From IMG/VR virus record IMGVR_UViG_3300017785_003930, positions 1 to 31,012 of that record: a DNA stretch of 31,012 nt; one strand, 5' to 3'. Source of the DNA: a virus. Lineage: Duplodnaviria; Caudoviricetes. The notes under the pieces were generated by a model. It was not told where the DNA came from. It saw only the letters and a list, made by a program, of their open reading frames with translations, and did not search any database. A program made the translations under genes and the position numbers. This document shows positions 12,347 to 24,721 of the stretch, piece after piece (the first letter of the stretch is position 1; each line of letters begins with the position of its first letter).

Positions 12347-12709
12347 ATGACCCAAAAGCAAAAAGACATCATCGCATTAGCAAAGAAGCAGCTGGCTCAG
12401 GCAAAGGATGCGCTTGCGGAGGCCAAGAAGTCAGCTCCAGAAGGCAGCTTTTCCGCGCATCTCAAGAAATACAGAAAAACCACAGGCATGACCCTTGAAG
12501 AGTTCTTCAATGCATCAGGACTTTATGGATCTGTGACGTGCCGCCTTGAATGTGGCGGTGCTGATAATGCTGGTCTTTTGACTTTGACCAGATACGCCCA
12601 TGCGTGCGGCGTGCCGTTATCAAAAATATTCAGAGAGTGGGAGGATTCACAATCAGGCCTGACGATTGACAAATTAAATGAAAGCAAGCGCATCATGGGC
12701 GTATCATAA
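12347..12709 (+). CDS. XRE-family helix-turn-helix regulator
   Basis: 'LKKYRKTTGMTLEEFFNASGL..SVTCRLECG....L.TL.RYA.ACGV.LSKIF' matches the cro/CI HTH pattern; the only convincing plus-strand gene. Confidence 0.85.
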   Translation: MTQKQKDIIALAKKQLAQAKDALAEAKKSAPEGSFSAHLKKYRKTTGMTLEEFFNASGLYGSVTCRLECGGADNAGLLTLTRYAHACGVPLSKIFREWEDSQSGLTIDKLNESKRIMGVS

Positions 12710-18770: not shown

Positions 18771-18900
18771 TAGCTCTAGCCTCCTGCTTGCGGTGCTTGT
18801 GCATTCGGTTGCCTAGGCAAGCGGGACAGCTGCCATGATTCCGGCAGGAGCGATCAAAACGCCTACCCTTGCGGTAGGGCTGCTTTATTGTGCGGCTCAT
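18760..18900 (-). CDS. 46 aa basic Cys/His peptide between terS and terL
   Basis: Hand translation MSRTIKQPYRKGRRFDRSCRNHGSCPACLGNRMHKHRKQEARASDH; overlaps the terS stop and the terL start. Confidence 0.7.
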   Translation of the reverse strand: MSRTIKQPYRKGRRFDRSCRNHGSCPACLGNRMHKHRKQEARASDH

Positions 18901-19295
18901 AACTTCCTGATCACAATTTCAGTAACGCCAGAATGCTCAACCTTCTCGGGCGCGTAATGTCCCGCACCTTTGCCAATCTCGCGAAGTGCTCCTGTGGCAG
19001 CTGAAAAGTCGGCGACTTCCTCGGCGCTCGCGGCAATTCTAGCGAGGCGTTCAAGCCATTTGTCCTTGGACATGTCGAACTTCTTTTCGGCTTTTACTGC
19101 AATTTTGTTGCGAAGTTCCTCGATCCTTGTTGCAACCTTGTTGTCATTAGCAAGTTTTGATGCGGCTGGATCAATCGACAAGGCGGGGCCGCTTGGATCA
19201 CTGGCAACGTGTTCACGATAAGCCTGGGCAGCTGGCATGTTTAGCGCCACAGCCTGAGCAAACTTTTCGTGTTTTGGGTTCTTCAGCGCTGGCAT
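18897..19295 (-). CDS. terS: Terminase small subunit
   Basis: 'LKNPKHEKFAQAVA...AQAYR...ASKL....KV..RIEEL', C-terminal 'KVEHSG'; upstream of terL. Confidence 0.85.
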   Translation of the reverse strand: MPALKNPKHEKFAQAVALNMPAAQAYREHVASDPSGPALSIDPAASKLANDNKVATRIEELRNKIAVKAEKKFDMSKDKWLERLARIAASAEEVADFSAATGALREIGKGAGHYAPEKVEHSGVTEIVIRKL

Positions 19296-19447: not shown

Positions 19448-19725
19448 AATTCGTAGAGGTTGCACACTGCAATTTGTTGCCTCGGCTCAAGTTGGTCGTA
19501 TTTAGCATCGGACACCGAGTTGGCGAATAATGGGCAATGCCTCACATCTTCCCACCACTCGTAAACGCTAGGATTGCCGCCATTTTGAATCCTTTTCAAG
19601 AATTCATTGGTTAAAGCCTGATAAAGCCAAACCGGCGTCTCTTTGTGCTGCAAAATATCACTCAACTCTGGGCGAGTGAGTTGAGAAAGCTTTTTTTCAG
19701 AATCAAGAAATTGCAATGATGTCAT
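19435..19725 (-). CDS. Hypothetical protein
   Basis: ATG near 19725 preceded by GAGG, downstream of a strong promoter. Confidence 0.6.
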   Translation of the reverse strand: MTSLQFLDSEKKLSQLTRPELSDILQHKETPVWLYQALTNEFLKRIQNGGNPSVYEWWEDVRHCPLFANSVSDAKYDQLEPRQQIAVCNLYELCQR

Positions 19726-19759
19726 ATTCGATAATCCCTCAATTAATCCGTTTTTCAAG

Positions 19760-19789
19760 ATTTTACTTACTTTATGAAAATTGTGTCAA
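19760..19789 (-). promoter_or_regulatory. Sigma70-type promoter facing the packaging genes
   Basis: TTGACA-N18-TAAAAT. Confidence 0.65.
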
Positions 19790-19815
19790 GCTTATTTGGC
19801 GGAATGTAGATTTTC

Positions 19816-19868
19816 AACGAACGGATAGGCAATATCATCAATTTTGTTTCTGCGCCAGATTGTTCGGC
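19816..19868 (+). repeat. Degenerate attC-like site 0
   Basis: AACGAAC-ggata-GGC...GCC-agatt-GTTCGGC; inner arms decayed. Confidence 0.35.
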
Positions 19869-20095
19869 CAATCTTCGTCAGTCTCTCGCCCTGGCGCACA
19901 CAGGCGGCAGTAGCTCTTTTGTGACCGAGGCTCAGTCTTGAGCACGTCTCGCTGCTCACCGCAGTATTGGCAGACTCCCGGCCCATGCGTCTCCGTAGGC
20001 ACTGGCGGCTCATTGGAGCCGAGCACGGACAACGGCAAAAGGCCGAACAAGCAGGATGCAGACAACCGCTCTGGGGCGTTGGGCGTGTTATTCAT
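19838..20095 (-). CDS. Cassette-like small protein with two CxxC pairs (zinc ribbon)
   Basis: CQYC...CRLC; starts inside attC-like site 1. Confidence 0.6.
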   Translation of the reverse strand: MNNTPNAPERLSASCLFGLLPLSVLGSNEPPVPTETHGPGVCQYCGEQRDVLKTEPRSQKSYCRLCAPGRETDEDWPNNLAQKQN

Positions 20096-20133
20096 GGTCT
20101 TGGGTTCGCGGTGTCTGATCCTGGTCGTTCGCT
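20042..20133 (+). repeat. attC-like site 1
   Basis: GCCGAAC-aagc-AGGAT[g]CAGACA[a]CCGC...GCGG TGTCTG ATCCT-ggtc-GTTCGCT; two extrahelical bases 6 nt apart. Confidence 0.8.
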
Positions 20134-20447
20134 GGAAGAGTAGCGTTTCGGCGGATGCAGGCGACGAACTCCTGAAACAACTCTGACTGCTGAGTCACCC
20201 ACTCAGGTTGGAGGCACTCGATACTGCCAGCAATGGCGTGCAACCGCCGCTCCATATCATTTGCATGAGCAATCATTGCCACCCCTAGCTTGTTGTCGTT
20301 TCCGCGAAAACGAGCACGGATGGCATTCGTTGCGGGTGTATGCCCCAACAGCGAACCAGCCGCTGCACCCAAGCCATCCTCTGGCTGGACTGTAGCGGCT
20401 CCATCATCGACCATTTGCCCGGTCACAGGCGTTCCATTTGCATTCAT
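20088..20447 (-). CDS. Cassette-like hypothetical protein
   Basis: Starts in site 2 and stops in site 1. Confidence 0.65.
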   Translation of the reverse strand: MNANGTPVTGQMVDDGAATVQPEDGLGAAAGSLLGHTPATNAIRARFRGNDNKLGVAMIAHANDMERRLHAIAGSIECLQPEWVTQQSELFQEFVACIRRNATLPANDQDQTPRTQDHE

Positions 20448-20489
20448 AGGCTATTCTTTGTCGTTGGCTGGGTGAGCTTGTCGTTCGAC
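20350..20489 (+). repeat. attC-like site 2
   Basis: AGCGAAC-cagcc-GCT[g]CACCCA[a]GCCA...TGGC TGGGTG AGC-ttgtc-GTTCGAC. Confidence 0.8.
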
Positions 20490-20713
20490 AAACGAGACTT
20501 CACTGCTTCCACGATCTGGCGCGGAGAAACACCGTCACCAATCAATCCAACTTCATCGCGGATTTCTTGGAGTGCGCGGAGCAGTGCCAGCTTCTCGGCT
20601 TCGTCCATTGTCTCGCACAGTTTCTCCCGCTCTTTTAGTCGCGCGTTCTCACATTGCAGTTTCTTGACCTCATCGAAGAGGCTCACATTGATTTCGTCTT
20701 GGGTCATACTCAT
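20444..20713 (-). CDS. Cassette-like coiled-coil hypothetical protein
   Basis: Likely start MSMTQDE just after site 3; the ORF-track extension to 20968 reads through an attC-like site and overlaps another gene. Confidence 0.6.
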   Translation of the reverse strand: MSMTQDEINVSLFDEVKKLQCENARLKEREKLCETMDEAEKLALLRALQEIRDEVGLIGDGVSPRQIVEAVKSRLSNDKLTQPTTKNSL

Positions 20714-20716
20714 AAT

Positions 20717-20815
20717 GTCGAACAAGGTTGCTGCTCCCAACTTCGGGAGCGGTGGTGTCGTGGGTGATAGGGTTAGTCTTTCGCTCTCCCTTCGTGGGAG
20801 AGCACAGTGTTCGCG
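20717..20815 (+). repeat. attC-like site 3
   Basis: GTCGAAC-aaggtt-GCT[g]CTCCCA[a]C...G TGGGAG AGC-acagt-GTTCGCG. Confidence 0.75.
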
Positions 20816-21030
20816 GAAAGAGGTTCTCCGCATCTTGTGCAGTGCGCGTTGTGAAGTTGTGGCCTCCATGCTTTTCTTGGTGTGGCGTAGCTCATGCGCA
20901 TCTGCATCGGAATCCAATGGCGGAACGATTTGCACCCGCATGGCTTTCCGTGCCAAATCCGCGAACAAGACGCTGCATTGAACGCCGAGGAGCGTCCTTC
21001 TTGAAGCGGAGATTTAGAGTCGGCGTCCAT
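20773..21030 (-). CDS. Cassette-like small Cys-containing protein
   Basis: MDADSK...ASCSR..CGC...CTRCG..SANTVL; starts in site 4 and stops in site 3. Confidence 0.55.
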   Translation of the reverse strand: MDADSKSPLQEGRSSAFNAASCSRIWHGKPCGCKSFRHWIPMQMRMSYATPRKAWRPQLHNAHCTRCGEPLSANTVLSHEGRAKD

Positions 21031-21047
21031 AAGCTTATGCGTTAGCC
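20960..21047 (+). repeat. attC-like site 4
   Basis: CGCGAAC-aagac-GCT[g]CATTGA[a]CGCCG...CGGCG TCCATA AGC-ttatgc-GTTAGCC. Confidence 0.75.
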
Positions 21048-21230
21048 ATGACAATAATTCACAACTTTCCCGCTTTCGTCTCGGTATCGAGCGTAAGCCC
21101 GTGTCTCACTGCATGAGTCGTCGTTCTCCTCCCACACTCCCAGTTTGGCTTGCAGGTTGTGCATTGCTGCCACGTATTGTTCACACGCGGTTTCCGCTGC
21201 TGGTTTGTCGTTGTATATAATGTCGTCCAT
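21042..21230 (-). CDS. Cassette-like hypothetical protein
   Basis: 62 aa; fills the space between sites 4 and 5; its TAA lies within the R' box. Confidence 0.6.
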   Translation of the reverse strand: MDDIIYNDKPAAETACEQYVAAMHNLQAKLGVWEENDDSCSETRAYARYRDESGKVVNYCHG

Positions 21231-21240
21231 AATTTAAGAA

Positions 21241-21327
21241 GGCTAACAAGACGCGCCATCCAACGGCGCGGGCATCTCTGGTTGTTTCGGTTGTCCTGCG
21301 CCGCCGTGGATGCGCTCTGCGTTCTCC
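21241..21327 (+). repeat. attC-like site 5
   Basis: GGCTAAC-aagac-GCG[c]CATCCA[a]CGGCG...CGCCG TGGATG CGC-tctgc-GTTCTCC; classical C/A extrahelical pair. Confidence 0.8.
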
Positions 21328-21585
21328 TTATCTGCGGGTGGCCTCCATTTGGCGGCGGCATGTTTCAACGCCACACCACCACAACAGAGAGCCGTTCTGC
21401 ACGATGCTGCCGATGCTTCCTTTGCCGTCGTCAATGTCCACTGTCCAGCCGTAGCTGGTTTCCCGTGCCGTGGCTTTCATCTTTGGTTCCAGCGTCTCGG
21501 CAGCGGCAAGAGCTTGAAGTTCTGACGGGAAGCCTTTCGGCATGTTTGGTGCTTGGGAGAAGTCAAGTTTTTCGTATGTCTTCAT
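21328..21585 (-). CDS. Cassette-like hypothetical protein
   Basis: Likely start MKTYEKLDF; lies between sites 5 and 6. Confidence 0.55.
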   Translation of the reverse strand: MKTYEKLDFSQAPNMPKGFPSELQALAAAETLEPKMKATARETSYGWTVDIDDGKGSIGSIVQNGSLLWWCGVETCRRQMEATRR

Positions 21586-21608
21586 AATGGAGTCTAGGGT
21601 AAATCGAA

Positions 21609-21701
21609 GGAGAACAAGCGGGATGCAGGCAACGGCTCGAAGGGCATCTGTCGTGGAATCAAAGTCATTCGCTCGCCGTCGCCTGATCCGCGACGTTCGC
21701 A
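21609..21701 (+). repeat. attC-like site 6
   Basis: GGAGAAC-aagcg-GGAT[g]CAGGCAACGGC...GCCGTCGCCTG ATCC-gcgac-GTTCGCA. Confidence 0.8.
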
Positions 21702-21937
21702 TCAGGAATCAGCCCGTGTTTGCGAAACGTCCCAATGTCGTCAGGATGAGCCTTTGACCAATCTCCGCCTTGCCGAAACAGGCTATTTGATTCAGTCCCC
21801 GATACGCCGTCCGCAAAGTTCTCTTTGAGCAGCACCGCCACTGCGCAGAAGTAGCCGCGCTCCCAATCATGCGAACGCTTTGCTGCACTCAACGGAGTGG
21901 GCTTTTTTGTCGTAGCGGTAGATTTTCGTTTGGCCAT
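21665..21937 (-). CDS. Cassette-like hypothetical protein
   Basis: 90 aa, 'WERGYFCAVAVLL'; starts in site 7 and stops in site 6. Confidence 0.7.
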   Translation of the reverse strand: MAKRKSTATTKKPTPLSAAKRSHDWERGYFCAVAVLLKENFADGVSGTESNSLFRQGGDWSKAHPDDIGTFRKHGLIPDANVADQATASE

Positions 21938-21998
21938 ATTCTATTCCTTTGGTTGAGTTTTTTCGCCGCCCACTCCGTAAGTGAGCAAGGCGTTCGGC
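21870..21998 (+). repeat. attC-like site 7
   Basis: TGCGAAC-gcttt-GCT[g]CACTCA[a]CGGAGTGGGC...GCCCACTCCG TAAGTG AGC-aaggc-GTTCGGC. Confidence 0.8.
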
Positions 21999-22282
21999 AG
22001 AATTGGGGACATCCAGAACGCGGGAGGATAATGCCAATCGTGATAGCGGTCGTCTTGCTGGTTGTAGATCGACCACTCGCACTCGTCTTCCCATCGAGTC
22101 ACCATACCTTTGAGCCAAGTTGCCCATTCAGGCGACCACATCAAAACATCGACTTGATCGCCAATCTGTCCGGGCAGCTTATCCGCCGTTTTAACCCAAG
22201 CCGAACAAGCCGCGTCAGGACAACCGTTACCAGCGCATGCAGGCAATGGCTCGGAGGTGGTCTGTTGTGTTTTCATAGTCAT
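21941..22282 (-). CDS. DUF551-like protein (cassette-like)
   Basis: 'WVKTADKLP...VDVLMW...W....FWMSP'; ATG at 22282 overlaps the upstream TGA inside site 8. Confidence 0.65.
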   Translation of the reverse strand: MTMKTQQTTSEPLPACAGNGCPDAACSAWVKTADKLPGQIGDQVDVLMWSPEWATWLKGMVTRWEDECEWSIYNQQDDRYHDWHYPPAFWMSPILPNALLTYGVGGEKTQPKE

Positions 22283-22315
22283 TTGCTCGCCGTCGCCTGA
22301 TTTTCGATGTTCTCC
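22200..22315 (+). repeat. attC-like site 8 (compound, two left arms)
   Basis: GCCGAAC-aagcc.. followed by an inner ATGCAGGCAATGGC...GCCGTCGCCTGAT-tttcgat-GTTCTCC that is nearly identical to site 6. Confidence 0.7.
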
Positions 22316-22515
22316 GCCTTCCGTTTCGGACGCTTGGCGGACTTCAGCGCGGCGAGGGCTAGCGACTGGATTTGCGCGTGTGGAGTGTTGACGCCCTGCT
22401 CCCACTTGCGGAGAGTCGATGCACTGCGACCGATGGCAATAGCCGCCTGACTCTGGGAGAGTACGGCGGCGTTGCGGGCGGCTTGGAGTTGAGCGGCGAA
22501 GGTCATGCTAGCCAT
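22279..22515 (-). CDS. XRE/cro-like HTH protein
   Basis: 'LQAARNAAVLSQSQAAIAIGRSASTLRKWEQGVNTP'. Confidence 0.88.
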   Translation of the reverse strand: MASMTFAAQLQAARNAAVLSQSQAAIAIGRSASTLRKWEQGVNTPHAQIQSLALAALKSAKRPKRKAENIENQATASK

Positions 22516-22532
22516 TTTTCAACCTATGCTCA

Positions 22533-22862
22533 TCAAACGATTTCGCAAGCAGACCATCCAACGATGTCACCTATGTTATTGTGCTGAGCCTTTTCCATGA
22601 GGATTACGCGAGCGCTCGCGAGTAGCCCGCCTGTCCCATCTGAGGTTGTTTCCGCAACCTCTAGGTTGATGCGTAACCACTCGCTCAGATATACACGGCG
22701 GATTCTGTCTCCGACCTTGTGACCGAACCCCTTTTTCCAAGGGGAAGATGTGCGACCTCCATCTATCGGCGGATGATAGAGCGTTCCACGATTGAGTGTG
22801 TCGCAATTAATTTTGGTTATGTCGTTTATTTTCATGAGGTAGTGTGTTGACGTGATCTTCAT
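22533..22862 (-). CDS. Hypothetical protein
   Basis: ORF directly downstream of a promoter/operator; start could be 22862 or about 22835. Confidence 0.6.
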   Translation of the reverse strand: MKITSTHYLMKINDITKINCDTLNRGTLYHPPIDGGRTSSPWKKGFGHKVGDRIRRVYLSEWLRINLEVAETTSDGTGGLLASARVILMEKAQHNNIGDIVGWSACEIV

Positions 22863-22874
22863 TGATCACACTGC

Positions 22875-22905
22875 ATATTATATCCGATTCGGATACAGTC
22901 AACAA
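22875..22905 (-). promoter_or_regulatory. Promoter with palindromic operator TATCCGA-A-TCGGATA
   Basis: Minus strand TTGTTGACTG-TATCCGAATCGGA-TATAATAT; AT-rich UP-like tract upstream. Confidence 0.7.
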
Positions 22906-22972
22906 GAGATTGCATTTATTTTCATTTTTCTTTGCAATCCCCGTTTTATCAGCCTCCAACGTGGGTATCGGC

Positions 22973-23032
22973 GGAGAACAATACGCTTCTGATTAACTCG
23001 CTCCGCTCGTGTCAGAGCTGAGATCGTTTTGC
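22973..23032 (+). repeat. attC-like site 9 (short)
   Basis: GGAGAAC-aatac-GCT[t]CTGAT...GTCAG AGC-tgagatc-GTTTTGC. Confidence 0.6.
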
Positions 23033-23289
23033 GTATGAATTTTGGCGCGAAGTTCCTCGGTGTATTTCTTGTGGTCGCACCGTCCAGCGGCCTTCCAAAG
23101 TTCCATCGCTTGGGCCTCGGTGACTTTCATCACGGTATGATCCGGCAGTTGGAGTTCTTTGCAGTGGGCCGGAGTTACGTCGAAATCGCAAGCATTGATG
23201 ATGCCGCACACATCGCATCGGCGAACCAAAGCATAACAAGTCGTGGCTGGAGCAATTGCTACCAGCGGGGATGTCGGTTTTGTATTCAT
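22993..23289 (-). CDS. Cassette-like Cys-rich hypothetical protein
   Basis: Likely start MNTKPTS inside half-site 10; CDVC motif; stops in site 9. Confidence 0.6.
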   Translation of the reverse strand: MNTKPTSPLVAIAPATTCYALVRRCDVCGIINACDFDVTPAHCKELQLPDHTVMKVTEAQAMELWKAAGRCDHKKYTEELRAKIHTQNDLSSDTSGAS

Positions 23290-23312
23290 TATCTTGGGGC
23301 GCTGGTAGTCAT
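23231..23312 (+). repeat. Partial attC-like site 10 (left arm plus terminal stem)
   Basis: GCATAAC-aagtc.. and a CTACCAGCG/CGCTGGTAG stem; no right arm where the dnaB 3' end begins. Confidence 0.45.
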
Positions 23313-24721
23313 TCTGCAATCTCCTTTAAAGTAAACCTTGGACCATCGAAATAACAAAGAATTTTATCGCCTGCCGCAAAGCCTCGCGCAAGCTCGACAA
23401 TGATATAACGTCGATCACGAATGATTTCAGGCTCCTTTTTTTCCTTGCTGAAGCTACTTTTTTTCTCCGGTGCCGTGTAAACATGCGCGACTTTTAGCCA
23501 TGCCTCGCAATCCATCGCTAGAGATTTGGACTCTCGGACATCGCCGTCTGAGTTCTCCTGGGCAACGGCAATAATGGCGACGTTGTATTTCTTCGTAGCG
23601 TCGCAAAGGCTCAGCGAAACGTGCGCAAGTTCCTGCTCTCTGTTGCCGCATTTCTGCCGAGTGCGTAGCTTGCCGACAAGATCGACAACGAAAAGCTTAA
23701 AACCCGCTTGAGCTTCAACGCGGATTTGAGCCACGATATCCTCAACGTAGCGGCCTGCGCTGGTATCAATCTTGTAAGTTTTCCCAGCGTCAGAGCGTAA
23801 TTTCTTCACCGCGACCTGATACGCCTCTTGTTCCTCGCGGCTTTTGAAGCCGTGGCGATCAATTCCGCCCAGCGAAACGCTGGATTCAGCAGCAATCAGC
23901 CTGCCTGTGTATTGCACGCGTCCTAGCTCGTTCGTGAAAACCACTGTAGGAAAACCTCGGCGCGCTGCGTGAATGGAAAGATTACCAGTCAGAACGCTCT
24001 TGCCGCTCTTCGTGGGACCGGTGACAAGCCAGTATTCATTTAGCCCCATTCCGCCACAGCCGCTATCAAGCGACGGGATGCCAGTTGGAATGAGGGGCGT
24101 CAACCCTGAGTCTATGCGGTCTTGAGTCTGACACATTGCCTCAATATGCTCGTTCAGGCACTCGCTGAGGGTGGCGGTAGTGCTGGCATCATCAGAAGCG
24201 CCAGAAACGAACGTCTGAACGGTGGCAATCGCTGTGTTAATCGTCGTATCAATGTCAATATCTGCCTCGGTGCCGTGCAGCTGGAGCTGTCGGAGAGCCA
24301 GCGCGTGACCGTGAATGGCGCGGCGTTGCTTGTGGAGATCGACTAGCGACTTAGCATAAATCGCTGCATGAGACGGAGACGGGATGAAGCAGAAAAGCTC
24401 AGTGATCACCGAGGGCCCGCCGCATTTTTCAAGTTTGCCTTGGTCACGTAGCCGATTGGTAAGGAATACGGCGTCGATAGGCACATCCTTATCATCCATC
24501 GTCAGAATCTCGCTGTAAATGGTCCTCAGTCCCTCATGGTAAAAGCACTCAGGCGATACTTTGGCGCGGATTGTGGAAAGCTTTTCAGGGGCGTTGAAGA
24601 TTGCAGATATGACGCCTTTCTCTGAGTCTTCCGACCATGGAAGGGATTGATTCAGGATTGCTAGGCAGTCCTCGGCATTCATCTGCTCGTTGCGTTTGCG
24701 TCCGTAGGGTGATTCGTTCAT
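23309..24721 (-). CDS. dnaB: Replicative DNA helicase, DnaB family
   Basis: N-terminal 'LPWSEDSEKGVISAI', 'IPTGIPSLD', Walker A GPTKSGKS, 'VVD', 'NREQELAHVS..L'. Confidence 0.92.
   Translation of the reverse strand: MNESPYGRKRNEQMNAEDCLAILNQSLPWSEDSEKGVISAIFNAPEKLSTIRAKVSPECFYHEGLRTIYSEILTMDDKDVPIDAVFLTNRLRDQGKLEKCGGPSVITELFCFIPSPSHAAIYAKSLVDLHKQRRAIHGHALALRQLQLHGTEADIDIDTTINTAIATVQTFVSGASDDASTTATLSECLNEHIEAMCQTQDRIDSGLTPLIPTGIPSLDSGCGGMGLNEYWLVTGPTKSGKSVLTGNLSIHAARRGFPTVVFTNELGRVQYTGRLIAAESSVSLGGIDRHGFKSREEQEAYQVAVKKLRSDAGKTYKIDTSAGRYVEDIVAQIRVEAQAGFKLFVVDLVGKLRTRQKCGNREQELAHVSLSLCDATKKYNVAIIAVAQENSDGDVRESKSLAMDCEAWLKVAHVYTAPEKKSSFSKEKKEPEIIRDRRYIIVELARGFAAGDKILCYFDGPRFTLKEIAE

Follow-up and report, generated by a model that had tools for sequence, protein, structure and literature searches.

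An integrase-less phage array of inverted integron-type cassettes with a predicted common reading frame at the crossover

The window analysed here, 31,012 bases long, is the whole of the viral record IMGVR_UViG_3300017785_003930, which belongs to a lake phage, occurs in freshwater metagenomes, with no RNA data set among those listed for it, and has an estimated completeness of 80%. According to Pfam and PHROG, its products include terminases, head and tail proteins of the podovirus type, a DnaB helicase, an exonuclease and RecT/Bet. The genes of the region considered are all encoded on the minus strand; here, ten cassettes form an array between the DnaB gene (23309-24721) and that of the small terminase (18897-19295), with nine hairpins of the attC type, an isolated R box at 19862 and half a site at 23231. 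The favoured explanation, to which a probability of roughly 0.8 is given on the basis of sequence comparison, is that this is an integron-type cassette array without an integrase, in which bottom-strand genes are predicted to be translated in frame through the G/TT crossover, exchange likely depends on the integron integrase (IntI) of the host, and an exchanged cassette would still find a stop codon in the next hairpin. The comparison supports the hairpin anatomy, the polarity, the G/TT boundaries, the travelling of a hairpin with the gene that starts in or after it, and the frame rule, by which the AAC of the R box is read as an asparagine codon.

Hairpins, polarity and units of the array

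Sites were called by an AAC...GTT pattern combined with L-box pairing that leaves two bases unpaired. This detector, which found no false sites in 347,446 shuffled bases, was used instead of an initial scan by folding energy alone, which was unspecific. In the window, it calls seven plus-strand sites between 20042 and 21998, in which 11 to 14 of the 14 L-box positions agree with L''/L' pairing, and finds no site scoring at least 12 elsewhere; the sites at 22200-22315 and 22973-23032 lie below its threshold and were placed by eye and via the chain of R boxes. The nine sites span 60 to 140 nt, and their R'' (AAC) and R' (GTT) boxes close imperfect hairpins, as is typical of attC. Rfam gave 0 matches in 19500-23500. 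The sites of the array are as follows.

19838..19868: array end; isolated R box GTTCGGC, with its G at 19862, attI/attG-like; part of the fixed phage DNA, from which the last gene takes its tail and stop
20042..20133, plus (top strand): attC; unpaired G and A; L-box 14/14; bottom-strand hairpin of -16.2 kcal/mol
20350..20489, plus: attC of 140 nt; L-box 13/14
20717..20815, plus: attC of 99 nt; loop without ATG; L-box 11/14 and chain match
20960..21047, plus: attC of 88 nt; AAC GCA TAA, with ATG 4 nt further on
21241..21327, plus: attC of 87 nt; unpaired C and A; L-box 14/14
21609..21701, plus: attC of 93 nt; a leader of 24 codons starts at the ATGA of the loop
21870..21998, plus: attC of 129 nt; L-box 13/14; -26.6 kcal/mol
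22200..22315, plus: chimeric attC with two left arms, reading frame kept; weak fold; 76-nt repeat shared with 21623-21698
22973..23032, plus: short attC of 60 nt; weak hairpin; chain match
23231..23283, plus: attC that is degenerate or only half present, with R'' and a left arm carrying the TTCYA motif; R'' matches 23026 at 6/7; poor fold and no convincing R'

The unpaired bases, mostly G and A at a spacing of about 6 nt, are found in the 5' arm of the plus strand; plus is therefore the top strand, and the genes lie on the bottom strand. The detector assigns the published TJE1 sites to the same strand as the supplement of that paper (PMC9892861). Both observations confirm what the first-pass annotation had claimed, namely that all cassette genes are encoded on the attC bottom strand. 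The units are bounded by G/TT, and in nine of the ten cassettes the R'' box of one site is the exact reverse complement of the R' box of the site before it, while the last cassette matches at six of seven bases; the R' at 22309, for instance, has its partner, GGAGAAC, at 22973-22979. As R boxes are symmetric, this chain alone cannot orient a site. The array departs from the canonical cassette layout, in which a top-strand gene ends before or at its own attC, in that its bottom-strand genes overlap both hairpins. A complete integron with intI beside attI is not found in the window, although intI is present in the viral contig L038; with nine co-oriented sites and no intI nearby, the array has the make-up of a cluster of attC sites lacking integrase (CALIN; at least two co-oriented attC). 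IntI is predicted to recombine these hairpins as folded bottom strands, by analogy with other phage sites for which recombination was observed (PMC9892861).

The box at 19862 has no hairpin partner (best L-box score 7/14) and is thus an end site rather than the R' of an attC. It is a lone conserved R box, possibly attI-like, without the TAA that shortly precedes GTT at the ends of several other arrays. At the opposite end, the site at 23231 was rejected as a full attC owing to its poor fold and the lack of a convincing R'. In the chimera at 22200, a portion of the 21609 type, comprising the right arm, the loop and a left arm, is joined to one more left arm, and the homologue P0002 does without the extra piece. 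Three hairpins (20717, 21241 and 22973) hold no ATG for the next gene, and the loop ATG of 21609 opens nothing but its leader. In hairpin 20717 (20711-20713, 20760-20770), ATC is found where related loops have ATG, and a bottom-strand frame is open through the hairpin from cassette 4 into gene 3, making a fused product possible. A relative diverges from the window at the spacer 4 nt before the GTT of this site.

Reading frame at the crossover

The genes of the cassettes and the two flanking genes are listed below.

18897..19295, minus: small terminase, downstream flank of the array; PHROG 51, E 7.6e-12
19838..20095, minus: cassette 1 gene, 85 aa; start codon (ATG) within the attC 20042 loop; Asn at 19862; weak coding score; no Pfam or PHROG match
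20088..20447, minus: cassette 2 gene, 119 aa; start by ATGA overlap in attC 20350; Asn at 20127
20444..20713, minus: cassette 3 gene, 89 aa; start codon (ATG) immediately beyond R''; Asn at 20483; coding score +23
20773..21030, minus: cassette 4 gene, 85 aa, with the leader MDAD...AASCS; Asn at 20809, in a frame that is less sure
21042..21230, minus: cassette 5 gene, 62 aa; terminated by the TAA within its own R' box (21041, CTAAC)
21328..21585, minus: cassette 6 gene, 85 aa; stop codon 4 nt ahead of R' (21321)
21665..21937, minus: cassette 7 gene, 90 aa; start codon (ATG) within the loop; Asn at 21695
21941..22282, minus: cassette 8 gene, 111-113 aa; Asn at 21992; possibly DUF551-like
22279..22515, minus: helix-turn-helix (HTH) gene, second open reading frame (ORF) of the two-gene cassette 9 (717 bp); Pfam HTH_31, E 3.3e-8; Asn at 22309
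22533..22835, minus: first gene of cassette 9, 100 aa; coding score +16.7
22875..22902, minus: promoter-like site over a short palindrome in cassette 9; consensus match 9/12; putative function
22993..23319, minus: cassette 10 gene; start at the DnaB end, ATG at 23319 or 23289; Asn at 23026
23309..24721, minus: DnaB-like helicase, upstream flank of the array; PHROG 19, E 1.8e-52

All eleven ORFs lie on the attC bottom strand, and eight of them read the AAC of the R box as Asn. From 19862 to 23026, the minus-strand readings across AAC are WPNNLAQKQN, ANDQDQTPRTQDHE, SNDKLTQPTTKNSL, ANTVLSHEGRAKD, ANVADQATASE, PNALLTYGVGGEKTQPKE, ENIENQATASK and QNDLSSDTSGAS. The chance of finding eight of ten in one frame is about 0.003 (binomial calculated by hand, p = 1/3). 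The eight GTT triplets had already been described as in-frame Asn codons within R' boxes; all positions and ORFs of that description are correct, with the reservations that 19862 is not the R' of an attC and that the frame of cassette 4 (ANTV) is less sure. The latter rests on its conserved loop ATG and on the homologue P0021 (82% identical), which is similar up to the Asn and then has a different tail. The leader of attC 20960 also opens a long unrelated ORF in L071 and L034; a tblastn match of cassette 4 to these two loci was rejected as proof of the frame, since it is confined to the shared leader. It was likewise right that the other two genes end at or just before R', namely at 21041 and 4 nt ahead of the box (21321). 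A stop codon in the frame of the AAC (frame 0) is present in all nine hairpins of the window, compared with four and three in the other frames, and the hairpins 20960 and 21241 retain it even though the present upstream gene stops earlier.

The attC-type pattern was found in 75 stretches of viral contigs, which together with further loci gave 159 distinct sites, seven of them copies of the window's own, and 157 of which were callable. The best-scoring incoming gene lies on the bottom strand at 142 of these and on the top strand at 15, eight of which belong to one mixed array (L065). Genes that read through R' have AAC in frame in 96 of 100 cases and in 84 of 85 confident calls. Grouping of the 126 confident genes that reach R' by protein similarity yielded 92 families: 77 in frame 0, one in frame 1 and 14 that stop in the R box using TAA or TGA. 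Hence 77 of 78 read-through families share one frame (p 1e-35), which upholds in a larger sample the frame bias that had been proposed. As the read-through genes enter 51 right-arm sequence classes (among 111), the rule does not reflect a single inherited hairpin. Furthermore, all 34 array ends listed, some of which are weak attC sites, are open to AAC in frame 0. A right arm of attC also follows directly after DnaB in the relative L006 (8615-8640), and a four-codon ORF overlapping the DnaB stop reads its AAC in frame (M-K-L-N-D-stop); this platform obeys the frame rule, too.

As a control, the same pattern was searched for in genomes, where it gave 122 stretches, with Verrucomicrobiota as the largest group among the 80 listed. 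Here, genes lie on the top strand in 115 of 151 cases and in 81 of 90 confident ones, whereas 121 of 129 viral genes are found on the bottom strand of the same DNA pattern. A frame-0 stop is present inside 139 of 141 viral hairpins (80 and 62 in the other frames) versus 52 of 127 genome sites; shuffled hairpin interiors gave mean counts of 87 (viral; maximum 100 in 200 shuffles) and 66. At the sequence level, this backs the suggestion that any cassette swap would keep termination intact. The stop overlaps the next start as ATGA at 43 of 141 viral and three of 127 genome sites, and lies 4 nt ahead of an ATG at 28 further viral sites. A frame-0 stop in nearly every viral hairpin and an ATG near the stop in about half of them are thus features that the comparison supports. 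Judged from these sequences, the comparison strongly supports a real and widespread form of the integron cassette system that differs from those known so far.

Cassette exchange, its probable agents and alternative explanations

Six pairs of loci share a gene end, and all four with different neighbours lose identity exactly at AAC, being 30-43% identical beyond it; in one pair (L048 and L055), the gene ends are 100% identical over 60 nt beside different neighbours. A gene start is shared by 30 pairs whose upstream genes differ; in 22 of these, the right arms are at least 80% identical as well, compared with 2.2% of 13,113 unrelated pairs. Variants of cassette 5 that are about 90% alike begin at 21041 (three records), others end at 21323-21324, and foreign DNA lies beyond. 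It had been predicted that the similarity of homologues ends at the Asn, and this was found in 19 of 20 proteins of the cassette 8 family, which keep FW..P..PN and then diverge into tails of 1 to 89 residues, and in five of five of the cassette 7 family, in which the Asn is invariant and the tails differ. At the DNA level, the likeness of cassette 8 to the loci L237 and L238 stops two bases past AAC. In a locus that has no attC (L227), a relative with 45% identity to cassette 8 has a short start and ends three residues past the last conserved Pro; since it does without both leader and tail, these look like hairpin-derived additions. The idea that each gene borrows its tail from the neighbouring cassette therefore stands for the differing tails of homologues, and has to be restricted for the last gene, whose tail is fixed phage DNA, and for the 14 of 92 families that stop in their own R' box. 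In the relative L006, the cassettes and the last gene are different, but likeness to the window begins at AAC, with the tail NIVEQKQN-stop instead of NNLAQKQN-stop.

Wholly different cassettes occupy the same slot in a relative whose terminase is 93% identical to that of the window phage, the value found for the complete relative G006. The array itself is identical across the covered parts in several sequencing runs and also in a second contig, and none of the cultured phages matches it. Most of 26 terminase loci have no site at detector threshold, which is not read as absence because several of them are short or lack the region.

A search for the tyrosine recombinase domain PF00589 gave no match in the 80% complete record or in G006. 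IntI was detected above the cut-off of a hidden Markov model in three of five and two of five genomes that hold this attC type; simple peptide patterns for IntI had given no hit in the loci from genomes. The closest sites to four hairpins of the window are mostly found in Verrucomicrobiota records, those closest to attC 21609 in Verrucomicrobiaceae, and on this likeness the host likely belongs to Verrucomicrobiota. The viral contig L038 (1920-6888) carries its own IntI (TIGR02249, 290 bits), co-directional with an inverted array of nine sites, and its last gene ends with Asn-Ile-stop at an attI-like site, 8 nt before the start of intI.

In the mechanism proposed here, IntI provided in trans by the host or a co-infecting phage would excise and insert units via the folded bottom strand. 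The array would be transcribed from the DnaB side and from a putative promoter in cassette 9, in which case the attI-like end would be the far end of the transcript. Ribosomes would cross the Asn codon, translate the right arm of the neighbour as a short disposable tail, stop, and often restart at the next ATG. A read-through gene would need the stop of the next hairpin because its cassette would be cut within the last codons of the gene. In the two remaining frames, a gene almost always terminates before leaving its own DNA, at a TAA or TGA that the R' box contains. The frame may be a self-reinforcing standard, in which one common frame makes the parts compatible and which would be kept by selection, because a gene in another frame would overrun the hairpin in roughly half of the swaps. 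It is tempting to go further and to propose, with odds slightly better than even, that phages run their own cassette pool on a shared coding standard: a flipped attC ends one protein and starts the next, Asn serves as a universal plug, and IntI is borrowed or carried to shuffle accessory genes within essential operons, while gene bodies gain hairpins at R'', which would be a visible route of cassette birth out of ordinary phage genes.

Several points weigh against this explanation. The frames derive from ORF calls and a dicodon model, which resolves the frame well in seven of the ten cassettes and poorly in three: 19862-20042 scores +1.7 versus +3.1 for a short top-strand stretch, 20809-20960 in the ANTV frame -11.1 versus +0.9 for another open bottom-strand frame, and 23026-23231 +12.0 versus +11.0 for the top strand. 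The further claim that a swap keeps translational coupling intact is backed in part, by the sites with ATGA or with a stop 4 nt before ATG, whereas 26 of the 141 viral sites have no ATG that is open through R''. At R'', the frame is skewed and not fixed (57, 31 and 17 over the three frames); the start-side arm is not frame-locked, which fits the arrangement because the R'' arm travels with its gene. That loop start codons are single-stranded in the mRNA was not supported by RNA folds, in which 36 of 100 coupled ATGs are unpaired compared with a background of 0.42. The 30 pairs with a shared start were drawn from a handful of families. Unrelated left arms are found ahead of one and the same gene body, and 22200 is a chimera with its frame kept, so that a second, rarer exchange route must exist; this could be top-strand recombination or the phage RecT. 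In four sequencing runs, no clean cassette-skipping joint was present among the joints listed; a joint from 22280 to 20469, seen in three runs, was rejected as an array rearrangement, as it covers about 20 nt per side by depth and was read as another hairpin with similar arms. Finally, three of the five genomes with the closest sites, which are incomplete, have no IntI above the cut-off, and the host is deduced from attC likeness only.

The most serious alternative, itself unlikely, is that the phage RecT and exonuclease exchange the units via short repeat homologies, with in-frame crossovers being selected and IntI playing no present part. The phage does encode RecT/Bet and an exonuclease and no tyrosine recombinase, and both the chimeric site 22200 and the variation of left arms among homologues would suit such a process; however, breakpoints lie at AAC/GTT, where the low identity beyond leaves RecT no homology to use, and across the many right-arm classes precisely those features are kept that IntI reads, the unpaired bases and the R-box pairing. 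Somewhat less probable still is a frozen relic, which IntI inserted once, of which the fitting frames survived and whose hairpins are now mere gene ends and starts. An array that is unchanged in several runs and in a second contig, and whose sites 22200, 22973 and 23231 are damaged or weak, would be expected of a relic, but the exact R''/R' pairing in nine of ten cassettes, the identical or nearly identical gene ends beside different neighbours, the exchanged cassettes in the slot of the close relative and the frame-0 stops retained in 20960 and 21241 are not. A misread polarity, in which the enzyme of this lineage cuts the other R box and normally oriented genes have let their start and stop codons drift into the hairpin, might appeal to the symmetry of the R boxes, the lower-rate recombination of top strands (PMC9892861) and the changing left arms of distant homologues, but is very improbable and already largely refuted, as close pairs break at AAC after the gene while the hairpin stays with the following gene, bacterial sites of the same pattern share the unpaired bases and carry top-strand genes, and the viral intI is on the side expected from plus polarity.

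 In searches of Pfam and PHROG over the cassette genes, only the HTH gene received a name, with one further match under the cut-off; the cassette 8 gene has an Atlas lead to DUF551 at 0.88 and no Pfam match, and the cassette 2 gene has no relative in viral contigs except an identical copy. The palindrome in cassette 9 is a possible operator for the HTH protein, and the cassette (22309-23026) may act as a self-regulated internal promoter for the downstream cassettes. Similar palindromes occur near the array ends of L035, L046, L048 and L085, and a strong promoter-like site (11/12), conserved in L006, lies just beyond the array end at 19760-19789, directed towards the terminase genes. The array of L065 (770-7000), with 17 detected attC, mixes bacterial-looking top-strand genes with phage-type bottom-strand genes, and both strands are often open across the hairpins; it is possibly a meeting point of viral and bacterial cassette pools. 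Several inverted cassettes in L033, L035, L041, L044, L065 and L071 encode what we take, from their motifs, to be DNA methyltransferases or Mom-like proteins, and such cargo suggests counter-defence. Elsewhere in the window, a lone plus-strand ORF at 12347-12709, weakly matching transcriptional regulators, stands among minus-strand head genes, and the contig end (30904-31005) contains an exact 51-nt tandem duplication, which may be an assembly artefact.

Relation to known systems and meaning for phage biology

Clusters of attC without an integrase have been described in phages, where five of six tested sites recombined with IntI1 and access to host integrases was proposed (Qi et al. 2023, PMC9892861, in its accessible part). 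The array in the window resembles these CALINs in being an attC cluster without an integrase, but antisense genes, translation through attC or a frame rule are not described in the accessible part of that paper. The TJE1 array, which was checked here, is canonical, with three sites whose top strand is plus and genes on the plus strand; in P12002L, the printed genes end before the sites, which are not called by our detector. Phage attC arrays as such are therefore already published, and the new part is the inverted, frame-locked layout, which was not found in the open-access literature by title and abstract, subscription journals lying outside this coverage.

The accessible text of bioRxiv 2022.09.11.507474 reports that IntI recognises folded attC bottom strands, which sets cassette orientation, and that a lone GWT/GTT without a hairpin can accept cassettes as a secondary site (attG). 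By analogy, the end at 19862 may have taken cassettes as attG sites do; unlike attG sites as described there, it marks the end of the array in a relative as well and contributes a tail and a stop that are in frame. The sedentary integrons of Verrucomicrobiota and related phyla share the attC type of the window, with an unpaired G and A six bases apart and some arms nearly identical to those of the window sites; median attC lengths are similar, 93 against 96 nt, and IntI is present in several of these genomes. They differ in their top-strand genes (81/90), the lack of an excess of frame-0 stops (52/127) and the rarity of ATGA (3/127 versus 43/141 at viral sites). In class 1 integrons, according to the accessible part of PMC8876359, ORF-11 crosses the attI1 recombination point and couples translation to the next cassette, and the accessible part of bioRxiv 2024.03.26.586746 indicates that cassette translation sets downstream expression and matters for the whole array. 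ORF-11 is a platform leader on the top strand at attI, as far as that account goes, whereas in the window the cargo gene itself crosses the site, on the bottom strand and at nearly every attC. An unusual relative orientation within the integron is shared with the inverted integron-integrase group of Treponema; there, in the accessible part of PMC4889954, intI is flipped relative to attC, while in the phage array the cargo genes are flipped.

The usual view of integron cassettes is that of a bacterial device whose attC follows a promoterless gene. In the phages, these sites are used with their polarity reversed, under a near-absolute frame rule (77/78 families) that is absent from bacterial arrays of the same attC type. 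This would explain odd ends of phage proteins, namely variable tails after an Asn, and their CS, LFG and LV leaders. As one gene family is seen both without attC and behind several unrelated hairpins, a handle on the origin of cassettes is also provided. Taken together, the findings suggest that IntI shapes the accessory genomes of phages and that polarity keeps the viral and host cassette pools apart.

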